Numbered from the stretch's first letter, positions 1-1,926 are shown. The stretch: 7,646 nt of DNA from a virus (IMGVR_UViG_2778261463_000007:1-7646), one strand, 5' to 3'. The notes: generated by a model not told the origin, from the sequence alone. Numbers and translations are program-made.

Positions 1-43
1 ACCGGAATTGAAGTGGTGGCCTGATGGTTACAACTAAACTGTT

Positions 44-63
44 CTGCCGACTGAGGTAAGTCG
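44..63 (-). other. 7-bp perfect inverted repeat (GCCGACT / AGTCGGC) with 6-nt loop, immediately 3' of the tRNA-like element on the minus strand; function unknown
   Basis: Read directly: plus strand gccgact-gaggta-agtcggc. No U-tract follows on either strand, so not a canonical intrinsic terminator. Confidence 0.3.
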
Positions 64-67
64 GCGC

Positions 68-144
68 TGGACCGCCAGCGGGGAATCGAACCTAGCGCAC
101 TCAACTTAAAGGGTTGACGCTCTTTCCTGATGAGCTAGTAGCGG
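68..144 (-). tRNA. Atypical tRNA-like element (possible pseudo-tRNA); anticodon triplet by position is TTT, identity uncertain
   Basis: Minus-strand read CCGCTAC-TA-GCTC-ATCAGGAAA-GAGC-G-TCAAC-CCTTTAA-GTTGA-GTGCG-CTAGG-TTCGATT-CCCCG-CTGGCGG-T-CCA. Conserved U8, A14, G18G19, canonical T-loop TTCGATT, 5-bp anticodon stem and 6/7 acceptor pairs are present. Position 33 is C instead of the near-universal U, and the T-stem has two mismatches. Starts 1 nt after the CCA of the neighbouring tRNA. Confidence 0.45.
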
Positions 145-145
145 T

Positions 146-221
146 TGGTGGCCCTTGCTGAATTTGAACCAGCGCCCTTGCGATTATGAGTCGCTCGCTC
201 TCACCACTGAGCTAAAGGGCC
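146..221 (-). tRNA. tRNA with anticodon CAT, tRNA-Ile2-like (lysidine type; anticodon-based tools would label it Met); resembles E. coli ileX and the ileZ of Stx-type phages
   Basis: Reverse complement gives GGCCCTTTAGCTCAGTGGTGAGAGCGAGCGACTCATAATCGCAAGGGCGCTGGTTCAAATTCAGCAAGGGCCACCA: 7-bp acceptor stem, D-arm GCTC/GAGC, anticodon loop CTCATAA, T-arm GCTGG-TTCAAAT-TCAGC, encoded CCA. The anticodon arm CGACTCATAATCG matches my recollection of E. coli ileX rather than elongator or initiator tRNA-Met. Confidence 0.8.
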
Positions 222-371: not shown

Positions 372-694
372 AAGTTGTGTGGCGTAGGAACCACTCTTAC
401 CATGATATGCATACTTTTACGATCGTAAAGTGTTTGTTCATACCCTGCATGCTGCATGATTCACCCCACAGACAATCTCTGGATTGTTGCGACGTTTGGC
501 AAGATACAATTAAAGATTATGCATTCTTCTATGCACGTATTTTTCTTCAAAAGTAATGTCTTTATTAAGGTTATATAAATAACTCATAAACCCAAATAAT
601 TAAATATATTTAGCACTTCTAATAAAAAAGATTGATCTTAATTTTCTGAGTGAAAGATAGCCATCTATTTATTAGTTTGCATGACTTCTTATTT

Positions 695-819: not shown

Positions 820-1926
820 ATGAAAAATTTAACAGTGGCACTTTCTGCTGTAGCAGCATCAGTATTTCTGGCAACGTCTTCAAATGCAGCAGAAATATAC
901 AATAAAGATGCAAACAAAGTGGATTTATACGGTAAAGCAGTTGGTTTACATTATTTTTCTTCTGATAAGGACCAAAACGGAGATCAGACTTACGCACGCC
1001 TTGGATTCAGAGGTGAAACCCAAATAAATAATTATATTACTGGTTTTGGTCAGTGGGAATATAATTTCCAGGGGAACAACCCTGAAGGGGATGGAGCTCA
1101 AACTGGAAACAAGACTCGCCTGGCATACGCTGGTCTGAAGCTTGCAGATGCTGGCTCTCTTGATTATGGTCGTAACTACGGCGTGGTGTACGACGCATTA
1201 AGCTACACTGACGTCTTCCCGGAGTTTGGACCTACCGCAGCGCAAAAGGATAACTTCTTCGTTGGTCGTGTAGGCGGTGTTGCCACATACCGCAACACTG
1301 ACTTTTTTGGACTGGTCGATGGGCTTAGCTTTGCAATTCAGTATCTGGGAAAAAATGAACGCAAGGATAAACCAGATACTTCAAACGGAGAGGGTGTAGG
1401 TGGCTCTGTCAGCTATGAATATGAAGGATTTGGTTTTGTCGCAGCATACGGCGCTGCTGATCGTACTAAAAATCAGAAAAAGGCTGAGCTTGGTAAAGGG
1501 AAAAAAGCTGAACAGTGGGCCACCGGGGTAAAATATGACGCAAATAATCTGTACCTGGCTGCCAGTTATGGTGAAACAAATAATACCCGTGCAATATCGT
1601 ATGGTGATAATATTTCAGGAGTGGCGAATAAAACCGAAGATTTCACTGTTGTGGCACAATACCAGTTCGACTTTGGATTACGCCCGTCTCTTGCTTATAC
1701 CCACTCTAAAGCAAAAAACCTTTCATCCAGTACTGATATTAGTAAAAAACATGATGACGGATATATTGAAAAATTCGTTGAAGTAGGGGCTTCTTATTAC
1801 TTCAACAAAAATATGTCTACATACATAGATTACAAAATCAATATGCTCGATAAAAATAAATTCACTGAAAGAACAGGAGTATCAACCGACGATATTGTCG
1901 CTGTTGGTCTGGTTTATCAGTTCTGA
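820..1926 (+). CDS. General porin of the OmpC/OmpF/NmpC family (prophage-borne, NmpC/Lc-like), 368 aa, with N-terminal signal peptide
   Basis: Signal peptide [23 protein letters not shown] followed by mature N-terminus [16 protein letters not shown] typical of enterobacterial porins; PEFG loop-3 motif; C-terminus [24 protein letters not shown]...[16 protein letters not shown] ending in Phe. Strong RBS. Gene is markedly more AT-rich than the flanking phage genes. Confidence 0.95.

Follow-up and report, generated by a model that had tools for sequence, protein, structure and literature searches.

What is the gene at positions 68 to 144 of this viral DNA: a broken tRNA, a tRNA put to a new use, or another kind of RNA in the shape of one? 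The window, by which we mean the whole stretch of 7,646 nucleotides analysed, opens in a cluster of tRNA genes, and there the initial annotation had marked an element with many tRNA hallmarks, C at position 33, UUU in the anticodon and an imperfect T-stem, suggesting that it may be a decayed or repurposed tRNA or a tRNA-like regulatory RNA. The features referred to below are these:

144..68, minus strand: tRNA-Lys(UUU) gene with C33 and an encoded CCA (ARAGORN, Rfam, RefSeq annotation of identical copies, family alignment)
145..145, minus strand: single base separating the tRNA-Ile2 CCA from the first nucleotide of the UUU tRNA (ARAGORN coordinates)
146..221, minus strand: tRNA of the Ile2 type (CAU), first gene of the array (ARAGORN; Rfam, 67.8 bits; RefSeq tRNA-Ile)
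1..65, minus strand: decayed tRNA-Thr(UGU) in the third slot, from which the window edge removes 8 nt (alignment with intact tRNA-Thr)
78..124, minus strand: 47-nt tRNA core, about positions 20a to 66, holding all differences from the ECCNB12-2 prophage (base-by-base comparison, alignment)
402..429, minus strand: match to a sigma-70-like promoter (TTTACG-16-TATCAT), lying some 180 nt upstream of the tRNAs (consensus scan)

At 68-144 an E. coli prophage carries a genuine tRNA gene, on the minus strand, a point that the initial annotation had left unsaid. ARAGORN calls a tRNA-Lys(ttt) of 77 nt at 68..144, and the covariance-model check that had been proposed for it came out in favour of a tRNA by a narrow margin: Rfam RF00005 matches 144..71 at 31.2 bits (E=0.0018), the gathering score of 29 bits being our threshold for a tRNA. 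A chance match can be dismissed, since identical copies are annotated as tRNA-Lys in three RefSeq genomes and homologues run to hundreds; the gene is thus already annotated as tRNA-Lys in RefSeq. Read 5' to 3', the RNA is CCGCUAC UA GCUC AUCAGGAAA GAGC G UCAAC CCUUUAA GUUGA GUGCG CUAGG UUCGAUU CCCCG CUGGCGG U CCA. Its anticodon loop runs C32(112) C33(111) U34(110) U35(109) U36(108) A37(107) A38(106), so that both the UUU anticodon and C33 can be read directly, at 110-108 and 111; the discriminator is U73 (window 71), and the CCA is encoded at 70-68.

Most of what makes a tRNA is present: U8, A14, G18G19, the T-loop motif GGTTCGA.TCC, a 7-nt anticodon loop and a purine at 37. The base that departs from the rule is 33, where the near-universal U of the U-turn is replaced by C. 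The acceptor and T stems are not fully paired: the two T-stem mismatches reported earlier are there, U50.C64 (94/80) and A51.C63 (93/81), and a third mismatch, C7.C66 in the acceptor stem (138/78), had been missed. Nothing in the evidence points to a tRNA-like regulatory RNA. We also considered a shifted anticodon, either a UUA suppressor or a quadruplet, and rejected it because every member of the family described below has a 7-nt loop and a 5-bp stem.

The gene sits in the late region of a lambdoid prophage. A prophage of E. coli LH50-c matches the window at 99.9% identity over 7.5 kb, and its order on the minus strand is replication genes, a DUF968 protein, the Q antiterminator, a porin in the opposite orientation, tRNA-Ile, tRNA-Lys, and then lysis and terminase genes. 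This is the late-region position at which Stx phages carry ileZ-argN-argO, and the earlier remark that Stx-type phages have Arg tRNAs here is borne out, argN occupying the same slot. The adjoining Ile tRNA was also described correctly, with tRNA(CAU) at 146..221, tRNA-Ile in RefSeq, and a 1-nt spacer at 145. The promoter consensus scan returned fewer sites than shuffled sequence did, and the match at 402..429 is a weak candidate for a late or array promoter, by consensus and not by function; neither the promoter and terminator scans nor folding of the 180 nt upstream yielded anything above chance.

On its other side the gene is followed by a tRNA-Thr remnant that aligns over the full length of the intact tRNA-Thr of PhiR47_1, YD786 and ETEC1749. 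Of its stems only the acceptor is intact, those of the D, anticodon and T arms being broken, and it has no CCA; the complete remnant (L003:9356-9428) scores 19.8 bits against the Rfam tRNA model, below threshold, and draws no ARAGORN call. It starts 2 nt after the UUU tRNA, occurs also in the GF4 and ECCNB12-2 prophages, and differs from intact prophage tRNA-Thr at about 30% of positions between near-identical flanks. We had considered the hairpin at window 65-40 as an internally deleted tRNA-Thr, and rejected this because intact arrays show the gene to be full-length and heavily diverged.

Is C33 then a sign that this one gene is decaying, as its description as atypical had implied? It is not. 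The family consensus, carried for example by strain GF4 and phage PhiR47_1, is found by BLAST in 798 of 5,426 complete E. coli genomes, at 853 loci, and the family also appears in 15 isolated or annotated phage records and in viral and metagenome contigs; PhiR47_1, the PPompW prophages and others have the same CCUUUAA loop on better stems. The usual array is Ile2-Lys-Thr(UGU)-Gly, with Lys in the second slot of the lambdoid late region. We ran three pattern scans in which the anticodon loop was left free in whole or in part. A scan on the anticodon stem with 33-36 free gave C33 in all 37 UUU matches, the other matches being mostly Arg or Gly tRNAs with U33; a scan on the 3' half only gave UUU in 122 of 124 matches, every one with C33, and Arg(UCU) with U33 in the remaining two; and a metagenome scan with the whole loop free gave C33 together with UUU in 34/34. 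The combination of U33 with UUU did not occur among the roughly 190 copies from these loop-free scans. Position 32 is variable, U or A in a few copies. We conclude that C33 is a fixed trait of a widespread family, present in every UUU copy of the three scans, and not a mark of decay in a single gene.

Constancy of this kind cannot be taken as proof of selection. Lys-type diversity is low, about 20 distinct sequences, and about 29% of the columns of the family alignment vary, so that the six specified loop columns (33-38) would be invariant by chance with a probability of roughly 0.13 on a rough estimate. We therefore rejected C33/UUU invariance as such a proof: because the family is so little diversified the invariance of 33-38 is not statistically compelling, and it may largely reflect shared ancestry, while being compatible with selection. 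Nor do we claim that C33 recurs convergently in unrelated phage tRNA-Lys(UUU). A few such cases exist (L014, L061/L382, L370); the rate in other phage tRNA-Lys, 2 of 115, matches the background of about 2% at which C33 occurs in a sample of predicted viral tRNAs outside the family.

These limits bear on a rival explanation, that the whole UUU/C33 lineage is a functionless relic, a disabled argN-type tRNA-Arg in which C33 is one disabling hit and which hitch-hikes in a recombining module; it would have persisted only through its place between genes that are of use, tRNA-Ile2 and those for lysis. The non-significance of the loop conservation at this family diversity suits a relic, as does the need for the near-universal U33 in the U-turn. 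So do the covariance scores, which are low throughout: the best, that of the consensus, which itself has the A51.C63 mismatch, is 44.4 bits against 57-74 for the array neighbours, and many variants fall below 29, among them PPompW prophage alleles with a 1-nt D-arm deletion. Decay has moreover struck repeatedly, in that D-arm deletion, in a multi-hit decaying allele in ETEC1749 and in an Stx2c-phage remnant whose anticodon arm is deleted; many copies are unannotated in RefSeq, and the neighbouring tRNA-Thr in the window has decayed as well. Against this, hundreds of genomes have the dominant allele in intact form, behind several different Q and late-region backbones, the family retains its encoded CCA and the motifs G18G19 and GGTTCGA, and the loop-free scans turned up no U33 revertant and no change of anticodon in their roughly 190 copies. 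The stems tell the same story: among 25 distinct aligned family members 95.2% of pair cells hold standard pairs, compensatory change is seen at three of the pairs, and what remains of the stem changes consists mostly of C-to-U steps to G.U. Lys-type changes nearly all preserve pairing, and a variant (L101) has a fully paired T-stem. On balance we consider a relic rather unlikely.

Some copies stand apart. The Stx2c remnant (L389:1507-1575, phage PV98-693, with 14 similar records) is unannotated and lies between tRNA-Ile2 and tRNA-Arg(UCU). RefSeq treats the family inconsistently: the consensus and 98.7% variants are tRNA-Lys, and the 76-nt D-arm-deletion allele of O157/O111/O145 strains goes unannotated, as does the CCGTCACCAGTTC allele, which ARAGORN nevertheless calls.

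The window copy has to be judged separately from its family. The 420-nt stretch around it is found identically in only three complete E. coli genomes, those of LH50-c, Ch1 and GF60, all from chicken sources, and RefSeq calls the gene tRNA-Lys in all three. A51.C63 is typical of the family, being present in 18 of 19 distinct Lys-type members; U50.C64 and C7.C66 are peculiar to this allele, which among the 25 distinct aligned members is the sole one breaking 50-64 and one of two breaking 7-66. Four further changes that are unique to it (T47C, G50T, G59T, G66C) cluster within 20 nt. Its own T-arm, CTAGGTTCGATTCCCCGCTGGCGG, shows a resemblance to the T-arm of the array tRNA-Gly that is only suggestive, and a search of viral contigs for a donor gave no hits. 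MFE folding was uninformative, in that even the family consensus does not fold into a cloverleaf as its MFE structure, and we therefore compared energies of the imposed cloverleaf:

Window allele: imposed cloverleaf -13.4 kcal/mol; Rfam tRNA 31.2 bits
Family consensus: imposed cloverleaf -22.3 kcal/mol; Rfam tRNA 44.4 bits
ECCNB12-2, closest Arg relative: imposed cloverleaf -29.2 kcal/mol; Rfam tRNA 54.5 bits
argN-type Arg: imposed cloverleaf -26.2 kcal/mol; Rfam tRNA not scored

The window cloverleaf is thus about 9 kcal/mol weaker than that of the family consensus, and its score 13 bits lower. It keeps an intact anticodon arm, D-arm, T-loop and CCA, and strain Ch1 has both the window allele and, at another genomic site, an intact copy of the consensus. 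The family's principal allele seems to be maintained; the copy in the window is most likely a weakened or decaying version, whose function in particular is not to be assumed. The alternative posed at the outset, decayed or repurposed, thus divides between two subjects: decay probably describes the window allele, with its two extra stem breaks and 13 bits lost, and repurposing describes the family, in which an Arg(UCU) scaffold now bears UUU.

Where that scaffold comes from is clear from alignment with argN, a comparison which the initial annotation had suggested. The two are homologous: family consensus and prophage tRNA-Arg(UCU) are 86-88% identical, and the window copy is 79-84% identical. 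Identity to E. coli lysT is only about 59-60% (about 59% for the consensus), whereas that to prophage tRNA-Arg(UCU) is 84-88% in the same comparison, and descent from a cellular tRNA-Lys is not what these identities show. An argN-type scaffold so far from lysT points to an anticodon switch from Arg to Lys. The resemblance to the argN type of ileZ-argN-argO is close (79-88% identity over a shared scaffold, in the same slot after tRNA-Ile2(CAU)) and extends to an unusual C1-G72 start, a ATCNGGANA D-loop with A20, and the encoded CCA; the family differs in having UUU instead of UCU, C33 instead of U33, usually A51.C63, and U73 where the Stx-phage argN type has G73. In a search covering one genome per species, the pattern of the scaffold (D-arm plus anticodon stem) is that of a cellular tRNA-Arg(UCU) found in many Proteobacteria and in spirochaetes, whereas its CUUU version occurs only in E. 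coli and Shigella. The family arose from the argN-type tRNA-Arg(UCU) of the same array slot: position 35 went from C to U and position 33 from U to C, and the anticodon stem acquired a compensating change.

In the slot after Ile2 we found Ile2-Lys-Thr-Gly in 120 contexts and Ile2-Arg-Thr-Gly in 17. The ECCNB12-2 prophage (L004), which has a perfect tRNA-Arg(UCU) with U33 and a canonical CUUCUAA loop in this slot, differs from the window at 12 positions in 78-124 and at none in 1-77 or 125-470. The segment 78-124 looks like a short exchanged patch by which paralogous prophage tRNAs would switch between Arg and Lys types. Recruitment of a tRNA gene in this manner has been reported: Saks, Sampson and Abelson are said in 1998 to have turned E. 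coli tRNA-Arg(UCU) into a working tRNA-Thr(UGU) by an anticodon mutation. The likeness lies in an Arg(UCU) scaffold given a new decoding identity, here through the middle anticodon base; that case was a single change under laboratory selection, whereas the prophage tRNA is a natural lineage with U33C in addition and a charging that is predicted.

With which amino acid would it be charged? Lysine identity in E. coli is set by the anticodon UUU and A73, and arginine identity by A20, C35 and U or G at 36 (PMC9976931). The prophage tRNA has UUU, U73, A20 and U35, a mixture in which the major LysRS determinant is present, the UCU/C35 of the Arg class is gone, the main ArgRS determinant A20 is retained, and U stands where LysRS prefers A73. 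Charging with lysine is most likely; the retained A20 and the U73 make the predicted identity uncertain. Suppressor tRNAs with U35 are known to insert lysine, and a tRNA that is given a UUU anticodon takes on lysine identity, as shown for human LysRS. Both findings speak against a non-canonical role, in which ArgRS would charge the tRNA so that Arg was placed at Lys codons, or in which the RNA would stay uncharged as a decoy or regulator titrating a nuclease or another tRNA-binding protein. The case for such a role lies in the retention of A20 and U36, the missing A73, and the suggestion in the AriB study that overexpressed viral tRNAs might act as inhibitors. C35, however, a major ArgRS determinant, is lost, the features needed for translation are all kept (7-nt loop, U36-A37-A38, T-loop, CCA), and the sequence offers no evidence for another partner. 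We think it very unlikely.

If the family is read as a lysine tRNA, what would a phage gain from one? Codon supply does not explain it. Per 1000 codons the prophage uses 34 AAA, 17 AAG, 7.6 AGA, 3.8 AGG and 7.2 AUA; AAA is host-like and AAG somewhat above the host's 10 or so, and AGA, AGG and AUA are several-fold higher than in E. coli, rare codons that do explain the Arg and Ile2 tRNAs. This tells against an ordinary supplementary tRNA-Lys for late expression, in which C33 would be neutral and unconnected with any defence nuclease. Such a tRNA would be in fitting company, since Ile2 reads AUA and Arg(UCU) reads AGA and AGG, codons commoner in the prophage genes than in E. coli; the AAG usage points the same way. 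A highly expressed host-type tRNA can, in addition, rescue phages (PMC11555353). Yet AAA and AAG are common codons served, as is well established, by a multi-copy host tRNA, and capture of the host lysT would have been simpler, as happened with Thr, Tyr and Gly, than converting an Arg tRNA and fixing C33. We judge plain supplementation unlikely.

The reading that we prefer, at about even chances, is that the family is an Arg-derived lysine tRNA which would evade anticodon nucleases during late translation, the window copy being a weakened member of it. The 1-nt spacer and the encoded CCA imply, from what is established about tRNA processing and as the initial annotation had reasonably supposed, a polycistronic precursor: the array would be transcribed as one RNA, from which RNase P and 3' exonucleases would release the 77-nt tRNA. 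With its UUU anticodon this would be a lysine acceptor reading AAA and AAG, and with its Arg-like body and C33 it would offer defence nucleases none of the features that identify host tRNA-Lys, so that phage late translation could continue while the host tRNA-Lys is being cut.

UUU, the anticodon of this late-region tRNA, is the one targeted by PrrC and by the AriB nuclease of PARIS. AriB cuts E. coli tRNA-Lys between 40 and 41, and U39A alone abolishes cleavage (PMC11464382, PMC12409363); the site, U36-A-A-U39-C40|A41 in the host, is U36-A-A-G39-U40-U41 in the prophage tRNA. PrrC, which reads the anticodon stem-loop, cuts on the 3' side of U33 (PMC2610378, PMC1950546), and C33 flanks, at the level of sequence, the 33|34 bond that it cuts. 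The T5 tRNA-Lys neutralises PARIS (PMC11464382, PMC12409363), and a phage tRNA-Lys rescues infection from PrrC170, with E. coli tRNA-Lys giving low restoration only (PMC11555353). Two observations temper the argument. U33C is without effect on the yeast gamma-toxin, another anticodon nuclease, so that C33 need not block cleavage; and the AriB site persists in the tRNA-Thr(UGU) of the same array, which is thus not proof against AriB throughout. Some anticodon nucleases, HepS and RemAIN among them, are themselves products of lambdoid prophages, which makes conflict of prophage against prophage a plausible setting.

C33 has a further predicted consequence. U33C abolishes formation of t6A37 by E. 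coli TsaBCDE in vitro (PMC8887486), and the prophage tRNA is accordingly predicted to be without t6A37. A natural, functional tRNA with C33 is known in the cytoplasmic initiator tRNA-Met of multicellular eukaryotes, where C33 is an anti-determinant towards the t6A37 enzymes of yeast and E. coli (PMC8887486); this molecule serves in initiation and not in elongation, belongs to another domain of life and is unrelated by descent. A more ambitious form of the nuclease reading is possible, if on the doubtful side: that a counter-defence tRNA borne by temperate phages is present in about 15% of E. coli genomes, in which the fixed C33 would act against nucleases of the PrrC and RloC type, cutting at or beside position 33, and the Arg-like stem against AriB, and which would be flipped between Arg and Lys by exchange of the patch. 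It would also be independent of t6A37, since with C33 in place the cross-loop U33-A37 pair, which t6A normally keeps from forming, is lost.

A functional parallel is the tRNA-Lys(UUU) of T5, likewise phage-encoded and likewise differing from host tRNA-Lys at the AriB site, by A39 and C41 where the prophage tRNA has G39, U40 and U41. The T5 molecule is a host tRNA-Lys variant with changes close to the anticodon stem, and its resistance and rescue are proven (PMC11464382, PMC12409363), whereas the prophage tRNA is Arg-derived, borne by temperate phages and marked by C33, and its evasion is predicted from sequence only. The anticodon-loop mutation hypothesis of van den Berg et al. (eLife 2023, PMC10264068) similarly has the anticodon kept and a loop base altered by the nuclease cut site; a term search of that paper found no discussion of position 33 or of prophage tRNA-Lys, and for coliphage tRNA-Lys it is T4-type repair ligases, not loop mutation, that are invoked.

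In the open-access literature we found no description of the fixed C33 of this tRNA, of its Arg-to-Lys origin or of its spread through temperate phages, and none of C33 in PrrC substrates. Most demonstrations of counter-defence tRNAs to date come from virulent phages, T5 for instance. If our reading is true, the idea would extend to conflict between prophages within E. coli, relatives of the Stx phages included; the family would also offer a case from nature in which a tRNA has changed its amino-acid identity, and a rare natural test case for the need of a bacterial elongator tRNA for U33 and t6A37. In practical terms, genome annotation is uneven across the family, some variants being called tRNA-Lys and others left unannotated.

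Some further observations concern the neighbourhood and the wider distribution of such loops. Between Q and the tRNA array, in the opposite orientation (window 820-1926, plus strand), lies a moron-like porin gene of 368 aa, which the LH50-c annotation gives as a pseudogene having an internal stop; ECCNB12-2 has an intact porin, and there an IS5-family ISKpn26 has entered between it and the array. Downstream of the array, at L003:9639-9711, about 220 nt past the window start, is a sub-threshold match (16 bits, E=0.63) to isrK, an Hfq-binding sRNA of Salmonella prophages, which is probably due to chance. Predicted C33 tRNAs occur in a number of unrelated contigs (L066, L104, L026, L014, L061, L370, L382); viral contig L066 has three, Gly(ACC), Ser(UGA) and Asn(GUU), and a few canonical tRNA-Lys(UUU) scaffolds among unrelated viral contigs have the CCUUUAA loop. 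Metagenome contigs L401 and L406 have arrays reading Ile2-Lys-Thr-Tyr(-Gly), a distal order that mirrors the host thrU-tyrU-glyT; the prophage Thr and Gly genes match thrU and glyT of the host in sequence, and the two likenesses suggest that the distal array was captured from the host chromosome. Contig L101 holds a Lys-C33 copy with a fully paired T-stem and G73. Beside that copy, at L101:3480-3555, a single observation, the tRNA-Thr(UGU) slot has UUU in a normal U33 loop, CUUUUAA, which is, as far as its sequence can tell, a second and independent switch to a lysine anticodon.
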